Positions 3,531 through 56,600 of a stretch of DNA of 64,000 nucleotides are shown in pieces. The position numbers and the translations under genes are program-made. The DNA comes from Rhynchobatus australiae. Lineage: Eukaryota. Under the pieces are notes generated by a model. The model was not told the origin of the DNA. It did not search any database and saw only the letters and a program-made list of their open reading frames with translations. The stretch lies in NCBI GenBank assembly GCA_034780895.1, contig JAUZTB010000062.1:25163547-25227546 (forward strand). The letters run 5' to 3'. Every line of letters begins with the position of its first letter. Position 1 is the first letter of the stretch.

Positions 3531-4261
3531 GGAGTTCCACTTACTGATGGACCAGAAGCACTTGCATACCGCTTCACTGAATGTCTCATCCTGGAGCTTC
3601 ACTGGTTCTTCTGTGGTACCCATGCACTGAACTAGGGTGGACCTAATGCCTATCAGGAGGAAGACCACCTCCCCCAATTGGTTAGGTTCTGAACATCGGA
3701 GGATCCACCTCCTGTCTGCTGGACCTGTTGCCTCTTCCTTGTTATTTTAGACTGAAAGATAAAAAGGGAAATTTATTCTGAAGTGATTTCTTTGAGCATG
3801 GTTGCCTCTTTCCATATCTCTGTGCATAAATGCGGGTACATGCCTGTGTATCAAAGATTTATACAGGCCCTCCAGCTCAAATTGTCCATGCTGACTAAGT
3901 TGTCTACTTAAGTTCATCCCATTTCACCACATTTGGTCCCTATCCCTCTGAACCTTTCCTATCCATATGCCTGTGTAAATGTCTTTAAAACATTGTAATT
4001 GTGCTCACCTCTACCACCTCTTCTGGCAGCTTGTTTCACATATCCGCCACTCTCTGCATGAAAACATTGTCCCTCAGGCTTATTTTAAATCTTTCTCCTC
4101 TCACCTTAAACCTACGCTCTCTAGTTTTAGACTCCCCTATCCAAGGAAAAGTACTGTTACCTTCCACCTTATCTATGTCCCTTCATGATTTTATATATCT
4201 CTGTAACATCACTCCTCAATCTCCTTTCCTCCAAGGGAAAAATGCCCCAGCCTATTCAGTG

Positions 4262-4401
4262 CAACACAGTCCTGATGAAGGGTCTCGACTTGAAACATCA
4301 ACTGTCCATTTCCCTCCAATAGATGCTGATAGAACCTGATGAGTTCCTCCATAATTTGTGTGTGTTGCTCTAGATTCCAGCATCTACAGAATCTCTTGTG
4401 A
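4262..4401 (+). mobile_element. Short Penelope-like terminal-repeat-derived insertion with hammerhead core and 16-bp TSD
   Basis: Flanked by cccagcctattcagtg (4246-4261) and cccaacctattcggtg (4402-4417), 14/16 identical. Shares its body with the copies at 6202, 12395 and 19916. Confidence 0.75.
4266..4305 (+). ncRNA. Degenerate minimal type-I hammerhead ribozyme motif
   Basis: acagtc-CTGATGA-a-gggt(ctcg)actt-GAAAC-aTC-aactgt: stem I acagt/actgt, CUGAUGA box, stem II, GAAA box. The cleavage triplet reads ATC where other evidence suggests ancestral GTC (CpG decay). Confidence 0.65.
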
Positions 4402-4537
4402 CCCAACCTATTCGGTGTCTCCTTATAACTCAAGCCCTCCAGTCCTGGCAACATCGTTGTGAATCTTTTCTGCACCCTCTCTAGTATAACCACATCCTTC
4501 CAATACCCAGGTGACCAGAACTGCACACAGTAAGCCA

Positions 4538-4715
4538 AAAAACATAAATGGGAGTAGGAGTAGGCCTTGTTTCCCCTTGAGCCTGCTCTGCCATTCAGCA
4601 GGCTCAGAGCCAATCTGACCTTGGCCTCAGTTTCACTTTCCTGCCTTTTCCCAATAATCTTTTATTTCCCAGTGGACCAAAAATCTGTCTTTCTCAGCGC
4701 TGACTATCCCTAATG
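4538..4715 (-). mobile_element. CR1 3' tail of a second subfamily
   Basis: ggagtaggagtaggcc...gagcctgctctgccattca...atctgacc resembles the tail at 51015-51130. Confidence 0.75.
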
Positions 4716-6201
4716 ATTCACATTATATCTTGCGTCTTTATTATTTACTGAATCTGCAAACTAACTTATTGTGTTCTTTTTAAAAGGACCCAGGTCATGT
4801 ACACGTGTTGTTGTCTGGGGAGTCATTGGTGCAACTGGAAATAGCACAAGTCAGGTGCAGTTTCAAGCATTGGGAGGTCTCACCTTCACATATCTAGTGA
4901 GGTAATGGATCTTCTTCCAGCACTGCTGCAGGGGTCTGGGAGAGACATTTTTAAAGGATAGACCATCATCTCCTGGCATCTTCATTGTGAACATGAGTGG
5001 ACTTAACCCTTCCTCCCAAAAAAAACCCTCCTCCTCTCCACCTGTGCCATAACACATTCTCACCCCATCCCACACCTCCTCTACCCTCCTCATTCATCTC
5101 CATCGCACCTTCCATTACAGCACCAGAATCCTTAGAACATGGCACTGGCGGCAACATTGTGGATCTTTCAAGGATGGAAGCTTGACTTTGTTTCGCATTG
5201 AAAACTATCAGCAGATGTGCAATATCCATTGCCGTGTTGTCAGGATCCACGTTACTTGTCAGTAAGAAGACGTGCTCCTTTACTTGGGGAATATGATCGA
5301 AAGGCACAGACTCGCTACCCTGGCTGAACTACACAGGGCTGGATTTGTACTCAGCAAAAGGAGCAGAAGAGTTTCTGGAGGCAAGATTCTGAAATCACCC
5401 TCTGTTAAATATTAACAGCGCAGAGAGCAGAGCAGTGCACAACTTTTAACTGTGAAATTCAGGAAACCTTATTTTTAGACACAGGACTCAGAAGCTCCAT
5501 TGAATAATAAATACTGACAAAGGACCCCTTGCCTCTAACAACTATAAGCTGTTCCAGATGTTGAAGGAGGAAATACCACTAAATAATGGTTAGCTTCACA
5601 GAACATACAGAGTAGTAAATGACCCACCTACTGCTATCAGCTCACCACTGGTTAGTAATGTTGCAGCAAATCTAGTTGATTTTACATGTATGCACTTACC
5701 TTCAAACTGCATAGCCCTTCAAACTAGCACTGAAAATGCCTATTATTTTAAAACCTAATTCTATTGCAAGGCCATGCTTTTACTGTGAGTTTAATTTCTG
5801 GCTAAAGTAAACAGTATGATACCTTGTGGCCATCAGTTGCTATTTTCATTCAAAGTTATCATGTTCCATTGAACCTTCAGTTCAATGATTTGTATTGTGT
5901 TTAGACTAACACTTCAGAGGAAGAACCATGGGGGAATCTGGTTTAGAAACCTTTTAGCTTGAAAGCTGTTGGAGACAAGGGCTGCTTTAGTATTGTTATT
6001 GATGTCATAAGCTTGCAATATGCTACAGGACTTTGCTCACTGCAGAAAAAGCTTTTAAAGTGGTAAAATAGCAGACTAAAGAATTTACTATAATCATATT
6101 TAATGTCATTGTATTAATCTTTCCATAGCATTACCTGAAGGTCATTGCTTTCCAAGTAACTGATCCTGAACAAACTACAGCTGACATGATAAATGAAAGC
6201 A

Positions 6202-6390
6202 ACACACAAAGTGCTGGAGGAATTCAGCGAGTCAGGCAGCATCAATGGGGGGAAATGGACAGTCAGTATTTCATCTGAAGGGTCTTGACCCAAAACATCG
6301 ACTGTCCATTTCCCTCCATAGATGCTGCCCGTCCCACTGAGTTCCTCCAGCACTTCGTGTGCCTCTGCAGGTTCCAACAACTGCAGTCTC
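6202..6390. mobile_element. Fold-back (inverted-arm) Penelope-like short insertion with perfect 17-bp TSD
   Basis: catgataaatgaaagca at 6185-6201 and 6391-6407. Arm acacaaagtgctggaggaattcagc...aaatggacagtc is the reverse complement of gactgtccattt...ctgagttcctccagcacttcgtgt. Confidence 0.8.
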
Positions 6391-6469
6391 CATGATAAAT
6401 GAAAGCACTTCTGGCCTGTAAAGTCCATGCCCACCTTTGTTAAAGTTGTACAATTATGCGTTTACCTCA

Positions 6470-11400: not shown

Positions 11401-12394
11401 GTTACTCTTCATGTTTAATTTTGAAGGAAGTTGATTGCAAGTGCCAACAGTTGGTTAAAGAGTAGGAAAAGCAGTGTGGGAGTGAAGAATAATAGTATTG
11501 GAATAGAAGGTAGTTTCTAGTTTGACAGCAAGCTGTTTTAATTCAAGTTACAAAGAAGTTGTACAATCAGGAGAGATACAACTTTTCAATCAGTGTGGGA
11601 ACAGTGGCAAAAAAGAGGCTCATGGCAATTTCTTCAGCAGTTGTCAAGAGTGCACCGGTTCATCTGCTCCCAAGTAGGCAAAATGCCTAACGAAGAAGAA
11701 ATAGCTCAGTGCTAAATGCTGCCTGCCCACAAACACAACATGCAACATTTCTGTATGAGTACCAATGTTTCAAAACCATTTTTATTAAAAACTGGACTTT
11801 CCTTCTTGGTAATATCGACCAGTTTTTAAATAGATGGGTGTAAAAATTCCATTGTGCTTCAAGACATGTATTAAAGTGGTGCTATAAGTGCATTCCTTTC
11901 ACAGAATTAACCTTGTTTGCCACCAGGTACATTATGAACCAGCTTGGAAACACAAATTGATGCAGATGGATCTGCATGAAGCTTAAGTGCAGACATTTTC
12001 CATAACCTGAGCAGCTTGCTACTGACTGCAAAATATGGGCAGATTTATATTTTACCTGTTTTCTTTTCTTCAAATCTCCCCCTCTCTCTGTATTGTTCTT
12101 TCTCTACATATCATTTGCATTACTGTTATAACTTTACAAATTAAAAAAAAATAAATGAGATTAGGTACTATTGTTTCACATTACCAAATAGCTCTTAGCT
12201 CTGCAAATATATGAAAAAATAATTCATATTATGTTTTTTTTACTGTAGAAGAGGTTATTGATATAGTAAATGAAATAAAGTCATTTAATATCTGTAAAAC
12301 TGCAAATAATTTTGCCCTTGGCCAAGAGGCCAAAGTTGATATCTGCAGAATTTTCTCCATAGATTGTTTTGGGTGGCATATTAGAGAGGTTAGT

Positions 12395-12597
12395 CAGGCA
12401 GCATCTATGGAGGGAAATGGATGGTCAATGTTTTGGGTCTAGACTCTTTATCTAGACTGTTTCATCAGTTTAAACAAAGGGTCTGGACCCGAAACATCAT
12501 CTGTCCATTTCCCTCCATAGACGCTGCCTGACCTGCTGAGTTCCTCGCGCTTTGTGTGTTGCTCCAGGTTCCAGCATCTGCAGTCTCTTGTGTCTCC
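12395..12597. mobile_element. Fold-back Penelope-like short insertion with about 15-bp TSD
   Basis: attagagaggttagt (12380-12394) and attagagagtttggt (12598-12612). Inverted arms caggcagcatctatggagggaaatgga / tccatttcccctccatagacgctgcctg. Retains gggtctggaccc-GAAAC. Confidence 0.8.
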
Positions 12598-12650
12598 ATT
12601 AGAGAGTTTGGTAAACCTTTGGTATAAGGTTAATCCATGGACTCAACAAC

Positions 12651-14900: not shown

Positions 14901-16267
14901 AGAGCTGATCACAGAGACCCTGCATTGCTTTTGGTGTGCATGACTCCTTTCCAACCCCAGTCACAGACAGCCACTAGTCCCCACTGCACAGCAAATGTGA
15001 TCATCAACTTGGCTGAGCAGCCATTCATGTTAAGGATACTGTGGGAGAGCAGTCCAACATGCAGTTTTAAGATCCAATTTTAAGATGCAGGACAGAAATA
15101 ATGTTCATCATTGAAACTTCCTCTGTCATCACAACCCAAATTCTGGTCCAGTATCTCATCTGAAACCTGGCACTCTCTCACACTTGCTCTGGATTGTCAC
15201 CCTGGCTCAGTTTATGCTTGAAAAGGAAATAAAGTTGTTTAGCTACAGAGAACAAAAATTCTTCTTTGAGACTAAGAACACTCTTGAAGTCTTGGGTAGT
15301 CTAATTTGGTGTTCAGATACAGGCATTTGAAGTAAAAAAAAAGATACAGCTATGCTGAATGCTTCCAGCTGATTCTGAATCTCAGGACAACAAAAGTAAT
15401 CAAAATTTCGTTCTTTGCACAAAGTGTAACTTGAACTCATGGAGATTCTCTTAGGTACTTCATCTGAAGAAAAGTATGTTATGTTACAGATGTTTACTGA
15501 AGGTTGTAATGCACACAGCAGGTGAGGAAGGAGCAGCCTGGGGTGCAACAATCCCTCACCTGGGATCTTTGTCCACGGTTTCTGCCTGCTTGGAGTTACC
15601 TGGGATTGGTGCAGAGGGACAATCTCATTGACCATGTGCAGGCTCATCCCAGGTAATGGACGGGTTCCGTTTTTAAGTTGATTTTGTCCATAAGTTGGAA
15701 ACTATGCAAAAATTACTTGATATGGTAACCATACCTCCACAATATTGCAATGAATGGCATCAAGAACACATGAGACAGATAAGAAAAAAAACAATTACCA
15801 GAAGTGAGAGGTTGGGGAAACCAGTTTTGCCTTTCATAGATACAGATATTTCTATGTTTGTCAACATCAGAATTTAATAATATTATGGAAGTTTGCTTGT
15901 GTATGTGGTTGTCAGTAAGTCAGCCATTCTTAACCCAGGGATGGCCTGTACACAGTTGAGTGAGACAGCGAGGCCCAGATGCTGACAAGCCTCATATTAT
16001 TTAATAGATACACCCCATCCATGGAACAACCCTGACAGGTTGTGACAGAATGAAATCTCCAGGCAATGCTCTATCTCCAGCCCTCGCCATGACTGACTTC
16101 TGTCAATGTCTCTGACAGTTGGAGACATAAAAATAATTAAAATTTTAGTAAAAAAGATAGAATAATATCAATTATCTTGTAGAAATAACAATGAAGTTAA
16201 TTAAAACACATAAAACTAACAACATTAAAGTAGAAAAATTACAAGAAAACTTTTGCTCCCCTTTAAT

Positions 16268-16440
16268 AAAACAGAAAGTGCTAAAGATACCCAGCAGATC
16301 AGGCAGAATCTGTGGAGACAAAAAAAGTAAACATTTCAGACCATTATCCTTTCACCAGAATTCTCACTACAGGATGCTCCCTGACCTGCAGTGTATTCCA
16401 AAATGTTCTGTTTTTATTTCCAATGTCCAGCATTAGCAAT
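16268..16440. mobile_element. Older-subfamily fold-back Penelope-like remnant
   Basis: aaaacagaaagtgctaaagatacccagcagatcaggcagaatctgtgg versus caggatgctccctgacctgcagtgtattccaaaatgttctgtttttatt. Confidence 0.7.
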
Positions 16441-16499
16441 TTAAAAAAAAATTCAGTTATCTTTCCCTTTGCCTTGTCTTTCCCACTGCAAGCTACAGT

Positions 16500-17660
16500 C
16501 AGGTAACTCCAGAGGCATGAGAGAGGAACTGGCCAAAGTTGATTGGAAGGGTGCCCTAGCAGGGCTGACAGTGGAGCAGGAGTTTAAAACTTTAACACTT
16601 TAAACAAACTTTATAGAACTTTATTTATACAGCACAGTAACAGACCCTTTCAGCCCAACGAGCCCACGTTGCCCAATTACACCCATGTTAACAGACTAAC
16701 CCGTACGTCTTTGGAATGTGAGAGGAAACTGGAGCACCCACACAGTCATGAGGAGAATGTATATACTCCTTATAGACAGTGGTGGGAATTGAACCCTGAT
16801 CGCTGACATTGTAATAACCATAGCTAATCGCTATGCTACCATACCGTACCATTCTGGGAGTAATTCGGAAAACGCAGGATCAGTTCATCCCAAAGAAGAA
16901 GAAGCATTCCAAAGGAGGATGAGGCACTGTGGCTGACAAGGGAAGTCAAAGACAACATAAAAGCAAAAGAAAGGACATACAATTTGCAAAAATTAACAGG
17001 ATTGGGAAGCTTTTAAAAACCAACAGAAGGCAACTAAAAAAGCAATAAGGGGAAGAAAAGATGAAATATGTAGATACGCTAGCCAATAATANNNNNNNNN
17101 NNNNNNNNNNNNNNNNNNNNNNNNNNNNNNNNNNNNNNNNNNNNNNNNNNNNNNNNNNNNNNNNNNNNNNNNNNNNNNNNNNNNNNNNNNNGGGGAAGAA
17201 AAGATGAAATATGTAGATAAGCTAGCCAATAATATAAAAGAAGATACCAAAAGTTTCTTTCAGTTGTATAAAGAGTAAATGAGAGGCAAGAGTGGACATC
17301 GGACTGCTGGAAAATGACACAGGAGAGATATTAATGGGGAACAAAGGAATGGCGAACGAACTGAATAAGTATTTTGCGTCGGTCTTCACTGTGGAAGGCA
17401 CCAGCAACATGCCAGAAATTCGAGAGTGTCAGAGGGCAGAAGTGAGTTACGAAGGAGTGATAGTAGTCACTATTACTGAAGAGAAGGTGCTTGGGAAGCT
17501 GAAAGGTCTGAAGGTAGATAAGTCACATAGGCCAGATGGACTCCACCCTAGGGTTCTGAAAGAGGGAGCTGAAGAGATTGTGGAGGCATTAGTAGTGATC
17601 TTTCAAGAATCACTAGATTCAGGAATGGTTCTGGAGGGCTGGAAAATCACTCTCCTCTTG
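16500..17660 (+). mobile_element. CR1-clade LINE ORF2 internal fragment (between endonuclease and RT), interrupted by a SINE and an N gap
   Basis: ORF 17292-17696: GNKGMANELNKYFASVFTVE...LKGLKVDKSHRPDGLHPRVLKEGAEEIVEALVVIFQESLDSGMV. Confidence 0.95.
16600..16850 (-). mobile_element. V-SINE inserted in the CR1
   Basis: Reverse complement of the 29256 element: B box gaattgaacc, A box gctaatcgctatgctacca, V-domain gaggaaactggagcaccc. Confidence 0.9.
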
Positions 17661-19915
17661 AAGAAGTGGATCTGGATCAGTGTGATCTGGATGTAATGAT
17701 TGCTGATGCCAGGTGCTAGAAGTGGGAGCAGCTATTTCCACTAAAGTCACTTCTCTCACTTCCCTGAGTGACAAAATCAGCATTTTAATATTCTTTCTAG
17801 AGGAGCAGATCCAATTCTAAACTTGTCCTTAATTAATAATTGTTAAGAGAGGTTCTTTCCTTTATGTAGGTTGATATTTGCTTCTTGGCAGGCACTGCAA
17901 GAATATGTCTGTCATACATTGTCTTTCTTACATAAAACTTCTGAATTAAACTTTGATATGTACATGGGTAGAATGCCAACACTTATCAAAAAGTTCTACT
18001 GCTATTGTTGATGTATGGTTCGCTTTCTCTCTAATAATTAGCATTTGGTTGAATGCCCATACTTATGGTTAAACTTTAGTATTCCCAGGTCAATCACAGG
18101 GCTCAAGCATAAATTTAAATTGGTTTATGCTCCTATCAGAGGTGTGCACATCATCAGTACTGCACTGCTTCCTTGACCATTAAAAGAACATTGTCTTCCT
18201 TCCATTACTTCCTATTCCTCCTGTGCACTTAAAGATATGTTTGACTTCAGAGCCCATGAGATCTTTTGGCATCAGGTCAAACATGGGCAAGGGAATCTCT
18301 TGATTATCACTTACTATCCTCCTTCAGTCTATGTATCAGCACTCATCACAACACTTGGAAAGTAGCAAAGGTATGCAATATATTCTCAAGGGGAGTCTTC
18401 AACGTCCATCACCTTATTAATAGCCACAGCTCTGCCCAAGCTGGCCAGTATCTGAAGACATGGCTGCCAGGTTGGGTATGAAACCAGTAGTGAGAGATAA
18501 CAAGGGACAAACCAAACTTACCATTCACCTCGGGTAAATGTATCTATCCCTGACAGCTTTGGTAGAGGTGACCATTGTGGAGATAAAGTAGTGTCTTCAT
18601 GGTCACCCTCCATTGTGTCGTGAGACACCACAGTCACGCTGAGTGGGATTAATTCAGAACTGATCTGGCAGCTCAAAACTGGGCATCCATGAGGTGCTGT
18701 GGACTTATCAACAGCATCAGAAATGTACACCACATCAATCTGTGGCCTGACATAGCCCTCTCTCTACCATTACTTGTAAAGCCAGGGGATTAAACCTGAT
18801 TCACTGAGAAGTGCCGAAGAGAAGCAACACAAAATTTACCTGAGAATGAGGAGTTAAGCTGTAGCAGAGGAAATAATGGGTGATAAACAGCAAAAACAGC
18901 ATGGAATAGACAGAACTGAGTGATCTCACAGCCAACAGACTGGAATATCCACATTCTCTATGCAGGGCCCAACTTGTGAGGGCCAAAGGCAAGGCTAGAG
19001 CCTTCACAGTCATGTTCAGTCAAGATGATGCTCCACCTCAGCTTCTTCCTGAAATCCGTACTGTCACAGAAATCAGTCTTCAGCCATATCAACTCCATGT
19101 AATTTCAAGAAATGGCAGAACGCTCTGGATACAGGAAAGGTTATGGGACCAGACAACATTTCAGCTATTGTACTAAATAAAGCACTCCAGAACTAGTTGC
19201 ACCTCTAGCTAAGCTATTCTAGTGCTGTAGCAACTCTAGCACCTACTTAAAAATATGGAAAAAATGCAGGGCAAATCAGTCTGGCTAATTACTGCCCAAC
19301 CAGAATGGTCTTAATCACGTGATGGAAGGTATTGTCATCAATGCTGTCAGGCAGAACTTGCTGATAACCCGCTCACTGATGTGCAGTTGGATTTCTCCGG
19401 TGTCACTGGGTTCCAGAGCTTTTCGCAGCCTTTGTCCAAATATGGATCAAAAAGCTGAATTCAAAGGATGAGACCAGAGTGACTGTNNNNNNNNNNNNNN
19501 NNNNNNNNNNNNNNNNNNNNNNNNNNNNNNNNNNNNNNNNNNNNNNNNNNNNNNNNNNNNNNNNNNNNNNNNNNNNNNNNNNNNNNGTGACTGTCCTTGA
19601 CATCAAGGCGGCATTTTGACCAGGCATCGAGGAGCCCTGGTAAAATTTATGATAATGGGCTTCATGGGGAAAACATTCCATTGGCTGGAGTCATATCTCA
19701 CATGAGAGCAGATGGTTGTGGATATTAGAGTTCAATCATCCTCGCCTGTGGATGTCGCTGAAGGTGTTCTTCAGAGCTGTGTCCCAGACCCAAACTTCTT
19801 CATTATGGAGTTCAGAAGTGAGAATGATTGCTGATGCTTGCAAATGTTAAATTCTATCTATAGCTTCCCAACAAAGAAATAGTCCATGTCTGAATGCAGC
19901 AAGTTCTGGACAGTG

Positions 19916-22834: not shown

Positions 22835-23395
22835 TAGACTTGGTGAGGCCGCACTTGGAACATTACATTTAGTTCAGTACCCACATTATAGGAAGGATAA
22901 GATTAAGTTGGAGAGAGTGCAGAAAAGATTCACACGGCTGTTGCCAGGAATGGAGGGATTAAGTTATAAAGAGAAACTGGACAGGCTGGGACCATTTTTT
23001 TCTGGAGCAAAGCAGGCTGAAGGGTGACCTTTTGGGGGGTTTATAAAATTACGTGAGGGATGGGTAAGTTGAATTGTCAGAGTCTTTCTCCCAGGGGAGG
23101 GGAGTCTAAAACTAGAGGGTATTGGTTTAAGGTGAGAGGGGAAAAATTAAAAACAGAATTGAGAAGCAAGTTTTTCCACACAGTGGGTGGTAGATATAGG
23201 GAACAAACTGCTGGAAGAAGTGGTAGGGGTGGGTACAATTATAGCATTTAAAAGACTGGTACATGGATAGAAAGGTTTAGAGGGATATGGGCCAAATGCA
23301 GTCCAATAGGAGCAGCTCAGGAAGACACCTTGGTTGGCATGAATGAGTTGGGCTGAAGGGCCTGTTTCTGTGCTGTATAACTCTATGACTTTGAC
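22835..23395 (+). mobile_element. CR1-clade LINE 3' end
   Basis: PHYRKDKIKLERVQKRFTRLLPGMEGLSYKEKLDRLG and SKTRGYWFKVRGEKLK; tail gggctgaagggcctgtttctgtgctgtataactctatga. Confidence 0.95.
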
Positions 23396-29729: not shown

Positions 29730-29895
29730 GAGACTCAGTAGGCACAGCAGCATCCATGGATCAGGAAATTAAGTTAACATTTTAGGTCAATGACCTTTTA
29801 TGGAGGGAAGTCATTAAACTTAAACTTCACACCCCACAAATGCTGTCTGACCTGCTGAGGATTTTCATTATTTTCAACAGGATTTTTGCTTTTGT
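29730..29895. mobile_element. Older fold-back Penelope-like remnant
   Basis: actcagtaggcacagcagcatccatgg...gttaacattttaggtcaatgacc versus ccacaaatgctgtctgacctgctgag. Confidence 0.65.
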
Positions 29896-38064: not shown

Positions 38065-39569
38065 NNNNNNNNNNNNNNNNNNNNNNNNNNNNNNNNNNNN
38101 NNNNNNNNNNNNNNNNNNNNNNNNNNNNNNNNNNNNNNNNNNNNNNNNNNNNNNNNNNNNNNNNGATGAATGGGGAGCAGACTCAAAGGCTTGAATGGCT
38201 ACTCCTGCTTCTGTTTCTTACATTCTAAATATTTGTTTCCCCCATTCTCAATGAGAATATCTTACTACTTCATAGGAAGGTTACCTTGTGTGTACAAACC
38301 AAAACAAGTTTTTAGACTTGAATCTATTGATTACATCTAGTGATCTCATGTTTTAAATCATGAGCTGCCTTCTTTCTGTCTCCTTAAAGTATATGCTTTA
38401 ACAAGATAAGAAGACCAGTCCTGTAAGCCTCCACTGATAACTATGCGTCCTTAAAGTAATTATCATTCTTGCATCCTCTGTATTTTATGCACGTTCACTA
38501 CATAAACCATGCAAAACTGGATACTCTTTTTTTAATATGGCTTAATTGGGGCACATATTTTACAACCATTCATTGTCCTGAGGAAAAATATTCCACATAC
38601 AAGCAGGCTTAAACACTTGAAATCCAGGAAGTTGCATTTGGAATTGGAAATGGATTGAGAATTCTCGAGACCATGTGCATCAGGGATGTTCGAGGCCCCT
38701 CCGTGATCAAGCACAGCCCTTTTCCTCAATCCATTAAAACACAAACATATCGGTAGATACAGGAAGAAATAAATATGCAGAATGATTAAGTGCTTTATAT
38801 ATGATATAGCAATTCGTACCGCAATCTATTATGCTTAAACAAACTGATCCAGCACTTGTTTGCCGTTAAGTCCAGTTTCACTGGGATCCAATATTTTGCT
38901 GAACCCCTTGACCAGGATTCCATAATCCTGATGTATTGAACCCTTGTGCTGAATGCTCCTGAAATAAATCAAATCAGGTTTTTTTTTGGTTTTGTTGCAT
39001 TTCTTTGCTATATCCAGCTTTCTTCTGTTACCTCCCTGCTTTGTTTTTTGTGCTCAGTTTACTTCTGTGGGCTTTGATGACTGACACTTCCACCACATTG
39101 CTCCTGGATTGGTGTTTCGATAAAACAGATTGCTCATCTCTGCCATCTGAATCAAATATAGCCTTACTTTTGAGGAAATTTGAGCAGATAATAAATAGGC
39201 TCTTTGCATTCTTCGACAAGTATATAAAAGTACAACCATGCAATTTTAAAGAGAGATCTAGATCAATGTCTTCTATAATTATTTTCATTCCAGGAGATTG
39301 TGGGGTTGACACTGGCAACATTGCTTATTTTTAGCACCGTCATCCATTCTAAACCAAGAAGGTCCCCTTCAGAGAGGGGAACAAAGCAGATTTCCACATC
39401 AAATCCGGTTAATGAGAGCAAGTCTCAAAGCATAATGTGTATCTTTGAATATATTTACCATTTACTTTGTATAAGATATTTGGGTCTTTTATTCTTCTAG
39501 GTACCTGTTTTGTTGGTCCACAACCAATTTGCAAGATGGATGCATTCAAATGAAATGTAATTCAGGCAA

Positions 39570-39790
39570 AATAAAATCAGAAAGTCCTGAAAACACTCAG
39601 CAGGTCAGACAGCATCTGTGGAAAGAGAAACAATTAATGTTTCATATTCGGGACACTTTGTAGTCTGTTCTGATCAAGAGTCCTGGATTGAAAATGTTAA
39701 CTGTTTCGCTTTCCACAGATGCTGCCTGACCTGCTGCATGTTTCTAGCACTTTGTTTTTATTTCAGATTTCCAGCATATGCAGTTTTTAT
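39570..39790. mobile_element. Older fold-back Penelope-like element with decayed hammerhead core
   Basis: cagcaggtcagacagcatctgtggaaagagaaaca is inverted against tgtttcgctttccacagatgctgcctgacctgctg; centre ttctgatcaagagtcctggattgaaaatgttaactg. Confidence 0.8.
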
Positions 39791-46679: not shown

Positions 46680-46790
46680 CCAGTTCTGACAAAGAGTTTT
46701 GGAGACAGATGTAAGAGGTATTATCTATTTCTCTTTCCACAGATCCTGCCTGACCTGCTGAGTGTTTTCAGCACTTTGTTTTTATATAAA
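46680..46790 (+). mobile_element. Single arm of the older Penelope-like element
   Basis: cagttctgacaaagag...tttccacagatcctgcctgacctgctgagtgttttcagcactttgttttt. Confidence 0.7.
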
Positions 46791-48719: not shown

Positions 48720-48885
48720 TAGGTCAGGCAGTAACTGTGGAAAGAGACATTTCCTTTGTTCTACCATTCTCTTCCTCAACTTCTCTTTTCTATGTTTCTC
48801 TTCCCACTGATGCTGCATGACCTGCTGAGTGTTTCCAGCATTTTCTGTTTTTATTTCAGATTTCCAGCATTAGCAGTTGTTTTTT
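48720..48885. mobile_element. Older fold-back Penelope-like remnant
   Basis: aggtcaggcagtaactgtggaaagagac versus cccactgatgctgcatgacctgctgagtgtttccagcattttctgtttttatttcag. Confidence 0.75.
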
Positions 48886-50379
48886 ATTTTCATCCGCCTT
48901 ACCAAGATAGTTTAAACTTGGTATGGGATTGAACCTGAAGTTGGGCTGTTCTAATTCCTTGACTTCAGTGACCTGTCTTCATAATTCACATAAATTATCA
49001 ACAATCAAGAGAATGTTTTACACAAAATTCTTTAGGTTGCTTGGATGTTCCACATATTTTTGGCAAAAAAATCTCCTTAGAATCAACGAATGGAGATTTT
49101 AAACCAGACAGCCAGAGGAAATGCAACAAGCTTAGTCAAGAGTGTGGTTTATGCAACACTGCTATCAAGAATTTTGTGCAGTGCACGTCAGTAGCAAATG
49201 GTTTATCACGTCAGAGTTCTGCTTTTTGCTTAATAAGGTCCACATTATTGGAGAGAATAATACAACAAAATCCATAGGCTTTGGTTCACAGTACTTTCAC
49301 AAAGAGGATCAAAGTTTGCTTTTCATGAAAACAATGGCAAAGGAATGTTCAGCTGGTCTTGTTTAATAAAATAACTGTATCTGCCATTAGTTCAGTAGGG
49401 AAGCTCAATACGTGTTGAACTAGATTCGCTTTGAAGCTTATTTTACTCTTCTGCTTCCACAGTTCATCTAGGAACAACCAGAGAACATGAGGCAATACTT
49501 ACAGATGCAGACAGGCAGGAACAGTGCAGAAGACTTTGTAAATCATAGACCTGAACATCACTCTAATCCTGGTCCTGAAAGGGTCACCTCCATTTTACTT
49601 GGGAGTACAATGGCAGACAAGGCACCTACCTGTTTCAAAAGCAAGCCAATGTGTAATAAGACAACGGGAGTATTATGACATCCACCAAATCCTGATGGAA
49701 TTTTATGGTATCAATGTATAGATTATGTACTAGGCACACCAGCACAAAGTGACCTAATCAGCATTCCTGAAAAAAACTGTCACAGGCTACTCCAACACGG
49801 GTGAGAGAATTGTGAATGTTTCCCCAAATCTTCCCATTCCTTTGTCACTTTTATGCCCAATGGTTTCCTGCCCAGTTTTGAATAATGTTGCTTTAAACTT
49901 GCTGGTGAAATGGAAATGAAGTTTGGTCATCGAAAAGGCTCAGGTTTCTTGCAAAAGATATCATCTTCTTTGTTTCCAAGAAGAAACTTATGGATGTGAA
50001 CATTATTAACTCAGATTTTAACTCAGAATTGAACTCAGATATTAAAATCAGCTCTTAGCATTGTACTATGTGGGGATAAAATTACAAGTAATCACTTAGC
50101 CTGCTCACAAGATGGTGAGCTTTTGTAGTGATTGTTAAAGGTTCTTGAAATGACCATATCAGACGTGCTCAATAATTCCCTCAAAACTTTTCTGGAAATA
50201 TTAGTGGAGTAACTGAAGAACATAGTGACACTTCTGACAATTTTGTAACATTTACTTCCTCCTGTAATTTATGCTTGATAAATTGTGAGCTATATGAAGT
50301 CTTTTTATCCTAAGCAAGCAGATGATTGAGTGAATACATAACTAACATATCAATTTGCCAAATATGTTCTTTAAAACTA

Positions 50380-54144: not shown

Positions 54145-56600
54145 ATATAAAAAGATAGAGAATAGGAATACAATATGGACATTCAGCCCTTCGGACCTGT
54201 TTCCTTATTCAACACAGTCATAGCTGATCCAATCTAACTACCATATTCCCATTCCTTCCTCATGCCTCTTGCTGCTCTTTGTGCCTAGAAATCAATCTAG
54301 TCAAAGAGTAACACAGCTCAGAAACAGGCCCTTCAGCCCATTGAGTCCAGGATGACCATCATTTTACACTCATTTATACCAATCCTACACTGATCCCATT
54401 TTATTCTTCCCCTATTCCCACCAGATTCTAAAGTTCACTGCACCTTAGGGGCAATATACAGGGCCAATTAACAGACCAACTCACATGACTTCTTAAATGT
54501 ATTTAGTGCCTTCTATACCTTCAGTGGTAGAGGTGTCTACAGGTTCATCACCTTCAGAGTGAAGAAAGTTCTCTTCATCCCAGTCCCAAATGTTTTACCC
54601 CGTATCCTGCGACTGTGGCTCTTGTTCTTGATTCCAACTTCAGCCCCCATCCCGACCCCCACCTCCTACCCATCTTTCTGCCACCACAACCAGTCTGTCT
54701 GTCCTGACAGAATTCTGTATACTTCAATGATATTCCCATTCATTCTTTTACACTCTAGTGAATACAGGCCGAGGCAACTGTTTGTCCTCAGTCCGGCCAT
54801 CCCAGGCATGAGTCTGGTGAACCTTCTCTGCACTCCATCTGTGGCCAGTATATCCTTTCTTAGGTAAAGATCAAAACTGTACACAACACTGAGTGTGATC
54901 TCACAAAGGCCCAATAGAATATACCAAGATATCCTTGCTCCTATATCCTAAACCTTTCAAAATGAAAGGCGTCAGACCATCTACCTTCTTAAGAGTTTGC
55001 TGCACCTGCATGCTTGATTTCAGTGACTGGTGTACAAGGGCACATGGATCAACATTTCCTAATATATCACCATTTAAATATCATGCTGTCTTTTTGTTTT
55101 TCCGACAGAACTGGATANNNNNNNNNNNNNNNNNNNNNNNNNNNNNNNNNNNNNNNNNNNNNNNNNNNNNNNNNNNNNNNNNNNNNNNNNNNNNNNNNNN
55201 NNNNNNNNNNNNNNNNNAGAACTGGATAACCTCGCATTTACCCGAGTTATATTGCATTTACCATGTACTTCCCACTCAGTCAATTTGTCTAAATCATTTT
55301 GAATCCTCTTTGTGTCCTCCTCACTACTTATGATCCCACGCAGTCCTGAAAAATATTGCATTTGGTTCCCTCATCCAAACCATTGAAGTACATTGTGAAT
55401 ATTTAGGGTCCAGGCAATATACCTGTGCTGCACCATTAATTACCCCCTGCCACCCCACAAAAGTCTCTTTTATTCCTATTCTGTTTCCTGTCTGTTAACC
55501 AATGGTTAATCCGTACCAGTATATTATCCCCAATCCCATCTGTTCTGTTTTGCACACTAACCTCTGATGTACAATTTTATCAAAGGTGTTCAAAAATACA
55601 CCGCACCTACTGGTTATCCCTTATCTATTTGACCAGTTGCATTCTCAAAAATCTCCAGCTGATTAATTAAACACAATTTCCCTTCAATGAATCTGTTAAC
55701 AATCTAATCCTGTTGATATTTTCTAAGTGTCCTGTAAATTATGTTCTCAATAGTAGGCTTTAACATTTTTCCTACTACTGATGTCGTCCTTTTTTCTCTC
55801 TCCCTCTTTTTTTTCTTTTAAATAACAGTGTTACATTTTCCATCTTCCAGTCTACTGGAACTATTCCTTAATCCATAAAATTCTGAAAGAGGGCATCCAA
55901 TGCATCCACTTTTAGTACTCTGGGATGCAGGTTATCAGACCCTTGGGATTTATCAGCTTTCAATGCTATTGATTTCTCCAGTTCTATTTCATTACTAATA
56001 CTATATTCCTTTAGTTCCTCCATTTCCTCTGCCTCTTGATTCCCTAACATTTCTGGGAAGGTATAGAACATAGAACAGTACAAACCGTGTAGTGTTCCTT
56101 TACATTTGAACTCCCAAAGTGCAACACTTCACATTTGGCCAGATTAAACTCCATTTGCCATTTTCCCACCCATATTTGCAACTGATCTGTATCCTGCTGT
56201 ATCCTTTGGCAATCTTCTACACTATCCACAACACCACCAATCTTTGTATTGTCTGTGAACTTAAGAACCAACCCATCCACATTTTCATCCAGGTCACTTA
56301 TATATATCACAAACAGCAGAAGTCCCAGGACAGATCCCTGCGGAACACCAGTAGTCACAGAGCTCCAACCAAAATAATTCTCATCGACCATTACCCTCTG
56401 TCTTCTATATTTGTATCCTCTTCTGTCAAGACAGAACCAAAATGTTTGCTTTGCCATTTCTTTGTTCCCTATTATATATAACTCTTGCTCATTTATTGCT
56501 GAATTCTCAAATGTTCCCAATTCTCAGGCCTGCTTCTTCTTCTGGCAACTTATATACCATTGTTTTGGATCTCATATCATCCTTAGTTTATCTTATAAGC
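54145..56600 (-). mobile_element. Nested CR1-clade LINEs (older copy with a SINE tail at about 54310-54490 and a younger RT fragment at about 56065-56400)
   Basis: ORF 56044-56520: GVPQGSVLGLLLFVIYISDLDENVDGLVLKFTDNTKIGG...WQMEFNLAKCEVLHFG. ORF 55868: LKADKSQGSDNLHPRVLK. ORF 54666: VQRRFTRLMPGMAGL. Confidence 0.93.

Follow-up and report, generated by a model that had tools for sequence, protein, structure and literature searches.

At positions 4266-4305 of a 64,000-nucleotide stretch of Rhynchobatus australiae DNA (the window hereafter), a short repeat copy carries a hammerhead-like motif, which raises the question of what element produced this copy and why it starts at the edge of the ribozyme. 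An earlier note on this DNA had assigned the motif to a non-autonomous, retrozyme-like element. Here, a probability of about 0.85 is given to the reading that the motif is a mutated, likely inactive hammerhead in a 140-bp Penelope-like terminal-repeat stub, which the enzymes of the element itself probably produced. Terminal repeats of Penelope elements have been known to carry minimal hammerheads since 2014, and the finding in the window is ordinary as such; with the motif class and the insertion layout already published, it is the statistics of the family that carry value. The record of copies bears on the use of the ribozyme by Penelope-like elements and on the way in which their ends arise.

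Copy sets and numbering

For the family consensus, 90 copies were picked by a 37-nt motif located downstream of, and outside, the ribozyme. The consensus was built from the 58 copies in register, leaving out 6 copies with N and 26 that were cut short or out of register. End mapping covered 179 unique copies, taken from two sets that had been selected with motifs lying downstream of the ribozyme, and 5' ends were counted in 146 of these after 33 with an N run hiding the end had been dropped. The samples are the first listed matches on two contigs and are biased to well-preserved copies. Family positions are numbered from 0, the first base after the predicted cut.

The motif and its insertion

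The letters at 4266-4305 were reread on the window sequence and are those given in the earlier note; the parts of the motif are listed in Table 1. All three core boxes (CUGANGA, GAAA, and UH) are retained in the window copy. Two kinds of motif search had been proposed as checks: our own relaxed descriptor of the minimal hammerhead found a single match in the window and none in 300 pair-shuffled windows, and the Rfam hammerhead models remained unmatched in the window at E<=10. Folding energy alone does not mark the motif, with z values of -0.63 for the window copy and -1.76 for an intact natural copy.

Four bases of the window motif differ from the family, at 4290 (non-CpG) and at 4291, 4297, and 4300 (all CpG). 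The change at 4297 breaks the 15.2-16.2 pair and that at 4300 the first pair of stem I, next to the core, leaving a C-A mismatch; stem II contains two G-U pairs, and the palindrome is lost, reading ACAT. The combined energy of the two stems changes from -10.2 kcal/mol in the family to -3.3 kcal/mol in the window copy. Because both broken pairs adjoin the cleavage site, the window hammerhead is likely inactive.

Table 1. Features of the insertion, its motif, and the sister copies, in window positions
Feature	Position	Strand	Basis or detail
Older LINE remnant hosting the stub, opposite orientation	3941..4507	-	inverted matches to sister copies, empty-site alignment
Left target-site duplication, 16 nt, 14/16 identical to the right one	4246..4261	+	sequence
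6-8-nt inverted stub of the tail-less 3' end	4261..4268	-	reverse complement of family tail-less end
5'-truncated terminal repeat (pLTR leader) of a Penelope-like element	4267..4400	+	-33 to about +100 in family numbering
Decayed minimal type I hammerhead	4267-4304	+	stem I 4267-4271/4300-4304
CAGTC	4267-4271	+	stem I 5' arm
CTGATGA (CUGAUGA box)	4272-4278	+	
Extra A	4279	+	unpaired base
GGGTCTCGACTT	4280-4291	+	stem II
GAAAC (GAAA-C)	4292-4296	+	
ATC	4297-4299	+	triplet at cleavage site
AACTG	4300-4304	+	stem I 3' arm
Penelope 'tail' of roughly 35 nt between two preferred 3' ends	4369..4400	+	two 3'-end classes
Right target-site duplication	4402..4417	+	
Sister insertion	6185..6407	+	inverted tail-less arm joined to tailed direct arm
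Sister insertion	12380..12611	+	two opposed arms

The direct segment of the insertion comprises 134 nt, and 118 of 135 columns equal the family majority. The duplicated word is present only once in two sister LINE copies in the window, as seen in an empty-site alignment. The first base of the inverted stub is common to the duplication and its last two are common to the direct copy; the A at 4266 is part of this stub and not of stem I. An equivalent inverted stub was found at loci L014, L015, L062, and L063. The LINE remnant hosting the insertion, within or overlapping which lies an open frame (4209-4661, minus), is taken by us to be CR1-like from a translated motif. The tail and the reverse transcription start sites bounding it have been described earlier for Penelope elements (PMC3846280; PMC11167929).

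Sister pieces had been placed near 6287, 6300, and 12486, and all were found there. The two sister insertions are two other young copies in the window, both inverted pairs. The one at 6185..6407 has a perfect 17-bp duplication (6185-6201/6391-6407) and a hammerhead core broken at the join, and the one at 12380..12611 has a duplication of about 14 bp (12380-12393/12598-12611) and a direct arm lacking the 5' half of the core. Older-subfamily copies, some of them hairpins, were also observed at 16265-16442, 29826-29875, 39569-39790, 46720-46787, and 48721-48893 of the window, and further LINE remnants with RT-like open frames at 192-699, 17283-17696, 22887-23388, and 56044-56523. Outside the repeats examined, a 120-codon stretch without stops at 4966-5328 is possibly a host exon.

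The family ribozyme

The consensus that the earlier note had called for has an intact core with pairing stems: the majority of the 58 copies is a complete minimal type I hammerhead with all core bases and with stem I (5/5) and stem II (5/5) fully paired. It is arranged as a 5-bp stem I, CUGAUGA, an unpaired A, stem II, and GAAA-C-GUC. The unpaired A between 9 and 10.1 occurs in 57 of 58 copies, loop 3 is missing, and the majority forms an ACGT (ACGU) palindrome, so that the earlier assignment to type I with a palindromic, vestigial stem III holds. The length of 6 bp proposed for stem I does not, as it comprises 5 bp in the family and the preceding base is C in 39/58 and A in 3/58 copies. The ancestor reconstructed in the earlier note has to be shortened by its initial A, which belongs to the inverted stub, while the rest of it equals the family majority and occurs naturally in an intact copy (L047:1491-1528).

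The columns that vary among family copies comprise four CpGs and a single A/G site, the latter giving U-A or U-G in stem II; with three of the four window changes also at CpG, the proposed CpG decay is borne out for most of the changes. The three core boxes are kept in 15/58 copies and a loose full test is passed by 5/58; genomic copies therefore decay freely. In the genome, the 35-nt core is intact and exact in 304 copies (reversed control 0), the looser descriptor gave 2160 matches, and the exact downstream 37-mer gave 2370 (reversed controls 0).

The older subfamily accounted for 1027 descriptor matches. Its core-adjacent stem I pair was U-A in 24, U-G in 5, and C-G in 1 of 30 copies, and the same pair was C-G in 20 and C-A in 8 of the 28 copies of the 12-nt-stem class. 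Overall, 94% of stem cells were paired, compared to 9-39% in slid controls. The covariation amounts to a single compensatory change, from C-G to U-A, plus a wobble variant; both are probably single events in a hand-picked alignment. The hammerhead of the older subfamily was further seen to have a 13-nt stem II region, U-A beside the core, and mostly U at the cleavage position, and a subfamily within L031-L060 (e.g., L052 and L053) appears to carry CAGAUGA for CUGAUGA and a different linker.

In the predicted lowest-energy folds, the intact monomer is not a hammerhead and the dimer is an extended duplex and not a double hammerhead. These predictions for the intact copy are in line with the low activity that was reported for minimal hammerhead motifs.

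The parent element

Many copies extend upstream through a pyrimidine-rich stretch into a GIY-YIG remnant and then into RT motifs, placing RT and GIY-YIG in this order upstream of the hammerhead, with Pfam matches that are weak on these decayed copies. In 14 gap-free copies, 287-396 nt separate the ORF stop from stem I downstream of it. Matches to RVT_1 (E 1e-5) and GIY-YIG (E 4.5e-5 and 0.015) were obtained in 3 of 7 fragments adjoining such ends, of which the RVT_1 match and one GIY-YIG match fall below the Pfam cut-off and the passing GIY-YIG match comes from a sister subfamily (L202). The remaining 4 of 7 fragments and a frameshifted ORF piece (P0001) had no Pfam match. The Penelope-type origin suspected in the earlier note is thus upheld by ends that adjoin RT and GIY-YIG remnants, and the copies attached to both ORF parts for which it had suggested a search do occur.

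At loci picked with the ORF-start region, the tail continues into the ORF start. One locus pair (L348/L355) reads end-ORF-end, although it carries an internal deletion and also a gap over the 5' ribozyme. Since the identical end flanks ORF remnants on both sides, we identify the repeat as the pLTR of an EN+ Penelope-like element that is autonomous. One screen gave four apparent 5' pLTRs, three of which proved to be unrelated neighbours. Among the fetched loci, only broken ORFs and no intact ORF were found in a search that scored the best candidates only. The parent element probably belongs to the Neptune clade because a Cys-rich linker between RT and EN is seen in the family; a Zn-finger-like Cys-rich motif in this place is given for Neptune and also for Nematis (PMC8557442).

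Seventeen of 30 loci picked for the ORF start (L358, L361, L362, L364, L372-L375, L377-L381, and others) were short partial tandems, in which the leader and about 250-580 nt of ORF are joined directly to another end piece. The end piece begins at about -31 to -34 in 7 of these 17. Such tandems could be template jumps onto short transcripts or internal deletions. It was also observed that the ORF stop codon lies within a GTAA word resembling a splice donor (37 loci, e.g., L047:1168-1176), and that this word occurs at the stop in two subfamilies with different last codons.

Tails, inverted arms, and duplications

The 3' ends fall into two classes ~35 nt apart, with 40 of 86 at or before +76 and 39 of 86 at or after +95. 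An inverted partner within 1.4 kb was called for 82 of 179 copies. In the unselected set, 26 of 33 inverted pairs had opposite tail states (Fisher p 0.0013); a tail was missing from 43 of the 45 arms paired with a tailed copy. Duplications of 10-22 bp, mostly 10-17 bp, were scored in 30 of 141 copies at a score cut-off of 10, the 99th percentile of the null being 8. At L129, L161, L245, and L278, short fillers between duplication and element often copy nearby sequence, and their appearance is, we assume, that of polymerase-theta-type joining.

A one-sided tail with an inverted pLTR has been described before (PMC3846280; PMC8557442; PMC8969392), and two internal reverse transcription start sites bounding the tail were shown in vitro for a lizard element (PMC11167929). 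Judged from the genomic copies, the two 3' ends, the opposite tails, and the duplications match these descriptions.

A pile-up of 5' ends at the edge of stem I

Many copies begin at the 5' edge of stem I. At -37 to -31, 32 of 146 ends were counted compared to 7.7 expected from the flanking rate, and only 1 of 146 ended at -51 to -38. The window copy, with its 5' end at -33, belongs to the pile-up class. An artefact of the method was ruled out by grafting real long copies onto foreign flanks, where 18 calls were made for 14 true ends at -37 to -31. Five of the 32 pile-up copies have pyrimidine-rich flanks and are possible miscalls, one of them being in fact joined to the ORF start. In a larger but less clean set, 75 of 287 ends lay at -34 to -31 (16, 24, 19, and 16 per base), at least 4 of the 24 at -33 being read-through copies of other subfamilies miscalled by the reference. 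Among copies of the older subfamily, sampled later and separately, 10 of 30 stop at this edge, 4 of the 10 after a G. In a literature search of mostly open-access main texts, no paper on a 5'-edge pile-up or on the present family in cartilaginous fishes was found.

The sequence at the A of -32 fits the initiator consensus, and it fits a 3' splice site equally. A G precedes 10 of the 19 ends at this A, compared to 15 of 121 comparable ends elsewhere (Fisher 2e-4), and it precedes 7/16, 4/24, and 6/16 ends in the other three bins; the excess was noticed after inspecting the four bins and is absent at -33 (4/24). Full-length L1 insertions from capped RNA carry an extra cap-derived G (PMC11702581). 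The stop would be explained if copying ran off the end of a capped RNA whose start lies at or beside the A of -32, and we put the chances of this at roughly even. The extended version is held more tentatively and at somewhat less than even odds: capped RNA may begin at the first or second base of stem I, the autonomous mRNA may yield SINE-like, G-marked copies of its ribozyme leader, and the ribozyme may serve as a decapping switch that removes a leader of ~32 nt.

RNA reads of a related organism (three runs and one contig set) covered both strands and showed no pile-up of starts at the ribozyme, which is uninformative because any active copy would be hidden among thousands of passive ones. 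The reads had 81 joints, and among the 15 that were examined, 4 start at the equivalent of -32 or -31. Parts of the family also occur in sequencing runs from 13 studies and several organisms, while no RNA data set was listed for the query itself. A host exon spliced on before -30 was rejected, as duplications lie 0-24 nt from the junction where found and the ends depart from the usual base frequencies of exon ends.

Alternative explanations

A stop at the same place would also result, for the same element, if reverse transcription were blocked at a 3' splice site ending at -31 (a pyrimidine tract with CAG, perhaps in factor-bound unspliced RNA) and not at an RNA start; we regard this as rather unlikely, yet deserving of weight. 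Pyrimidines make up 91-100% of each of the 14 columns that precede the AG in 91 read-through copies, although, with the whole 3' untranslated region rich in pyrimidines, this tract could be a coincidence. In the older subfamily, the CAG is unchanged and follows a different tract, and a branch-point-like word lies 12-40 nt upstream in 7 of 20 copies. The spread of ends over -34 to -31 is wider than a single start site predicts and fits a splice-site block, but such a block leaves the extra G at -32 unexplained. In D. virilis, the end of an intron coincides with the 5' boundary of helix I (PMC4209133), and the start site has been placed 46 bp ahead of a 75-bp intron (PMC2377424). In the family studied here, however, one pattern search for the ORF end spliced to -30 yielded no genomic copy, its single match being a target duplication, and none of the 15 joints shown (of 81) in the RNA reads of the related organism was this splice. 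Retained introns are normal in such elements, and the absence of a spliced copy therefore does not exclude an intron. The sequences preceding the pile-up copies are not shared, as judged by eye, hence there is no common first exon.

New cDNA of the same element might instead fold back through the two arms of stem I at -33 and so end its own copying, which appears improbable. The junctions of L068 and L032 are exactly the shared 5-bp stem I word, and 15 of 82 partner arms also end at -37 to -30, but no adjacent inverted arm was called for 23 of the 32 pile-up copies. The 5-bp stem would also have to outcompete an RNA-DNA hybrid, and folding back at stem I predicts no extra G.

The retrozyme-like element of the earlier note, a separate and non-autonomous carrier of the hammerhead that borrows Penelope enzymes, is largely refuted by the copy record and we give it very little credence. 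The shortness of most copies (only 12 of 179 were mapped to -360 or beyond) and the 5' end near the ribozyme shared by many of them, resembling a SINE of fixed length, would speak for it, and retrozymes have been proposed to derive from pLTRs (bioRxiv 10.64898/2026.07.22.740005). Non-LTR retrozymes also share with the present family a type I hammerhead, a relation to Penelope, and short non-coding copies (PMC7229834; bioRxiv 10.64898/2026.07.22.740005). Retrozymes are, however, described in these sources as head-to-tail tandems with monomers of about 150-450 bp, mostly canonical hammerheads, and circular RNA. Unlike these, the copies here are dispersed and of the same kind as the end of the autonomous element. 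Their lengths are continuous from about 40 nt to >2 kb, no sequence is private to the short ones, and the same sequence stands on both sides of the ORF. Regular tandem arrays were not found, a second same-strand core within 1.2 kb occurring in 5 of 179 loci at irregular spacings of 163-866 nt. The genomic copies show no selection on the core, with G12 replaced by A in 25 of 58. A fixed short master with the window junction was considered as well, but this junction is exact only 4 times in the genome and there is no sign of such a master.

Least probable of all is that the ribozyme cuts the template in vivo and that copies usually begin at the cleavage site of the cut RNA, since the excess there is slight and displaced by 1-3 nt from the cut (9 of 146 ends at -3 to 0 vs 4.4 expected, Poisson 0.035, uncorrected), a single end coincides with 0, several of the 9 mark places where the copy meets an inverted arm beside a palindromic word, and 105 of 146 copies run past -4.

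Proposed mechanism and comparison with known elements

In the preferred reading, the stub would have been made by the enzymes of the Penelope-like element copying only the first ~135 nt of its RNA. Experiments in vitro with a lizard element showed that reverse transcription begins at two internal sites of the RNA, that cleavage and extension involve both strands of the target, and that the template is mainly RNA left uncleaved (PMC11167929). At the window locus, one target strand may have served as primer at the tail site, with synthesis passing the uncleaved ribozyme and ending at its 5' edge, and the other may have served as primer at the tail-less site, where only 6-8 nt were added. The two products would then have been joined at a 2-nt overlap, and a staggered cut would have given the 16-bp duplication. 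Copying would have ended at the 5' edge if the capped RNA started at or beside the A of -32, a step that we hold to be about as probable as its opposite. In the active ancestor, cleavage by the ribozyme, 33 nt into the motif, may have required a dimer or the help of a protein of the element. Decay after insertion would resemble that of neutral methylated DNA.

The hammerhead of the family agrees with the minimal hammerheads of Penelope-like elements described in PMC4209133 in its type I order, the CUGANGA, GAAA, and UH boxes, the unpaired base between 9 and 10.1, the G10.1-C11.1 pair, the palindromic 15.2-16.2, the missing loop 3, and a helix I of 4-5 bp, as well as in thousands of solo copies, which were read there as truncated Penelope-like elements. 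Helix II here has 4-5 bp, unlike the 7-8 bp of Schistosoma (PMC4209133). The main text of that paper names fishes, coelacanth, frog, and reptiles but not cartilaginous fishes, and describes no pile-up of copy ends at helix I.

RT followed by a C-terminal GIY-YIG, strong 5' truncation, partial tandems, an adjacent inverted copy, a tail of 30-40 bp at one end only, and a target duplication are shared with EN+ Penelope-like elements (PMC3846280; PMC8557442), with duplications mostly of 10-17 bp here compared to 8-10 bp in the rotifer EN+ examples. As in PAc, the Poseidon element of the green anole (PMC11167929), the hammerhead lies within the pLTR, shortly ahead of where the ORF begins. In both PAc and the present family, the tail is bounded by two internal RT start sites, and in the account of PAc, as here, cleaved RNA is unsupported as the main template (PMC11167929). 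The ORF of PAc starts at stem II, whereas in L348 the ORF remnant has its first in-frame ATG about 22 nt past the cut. The main text on PAc (PMC11167929) leaves the 5' ends of genomic copies aside.

Meaning for the family

The copies constitute a natural record with two fixed 3' ends, one of each per inverted insertion, and little sign of cleaved templates. If the stop is the start of capped RNA, many solo hammerheads would be explained without a non-autonomous family. Solo minimal hammerheads, of which animal genomes contain thousands, would then be complete run-off copies of the leader, not random truncations or non-autonomous elements, and reverse transcription starting about 100 or 135 nt downstream would keep generating ribozyme-leader copies from the autonomous mRNA. 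The ends of the copies would, if this is true, map the promoter and both reverse transcription start sites of the element from DNA alone.
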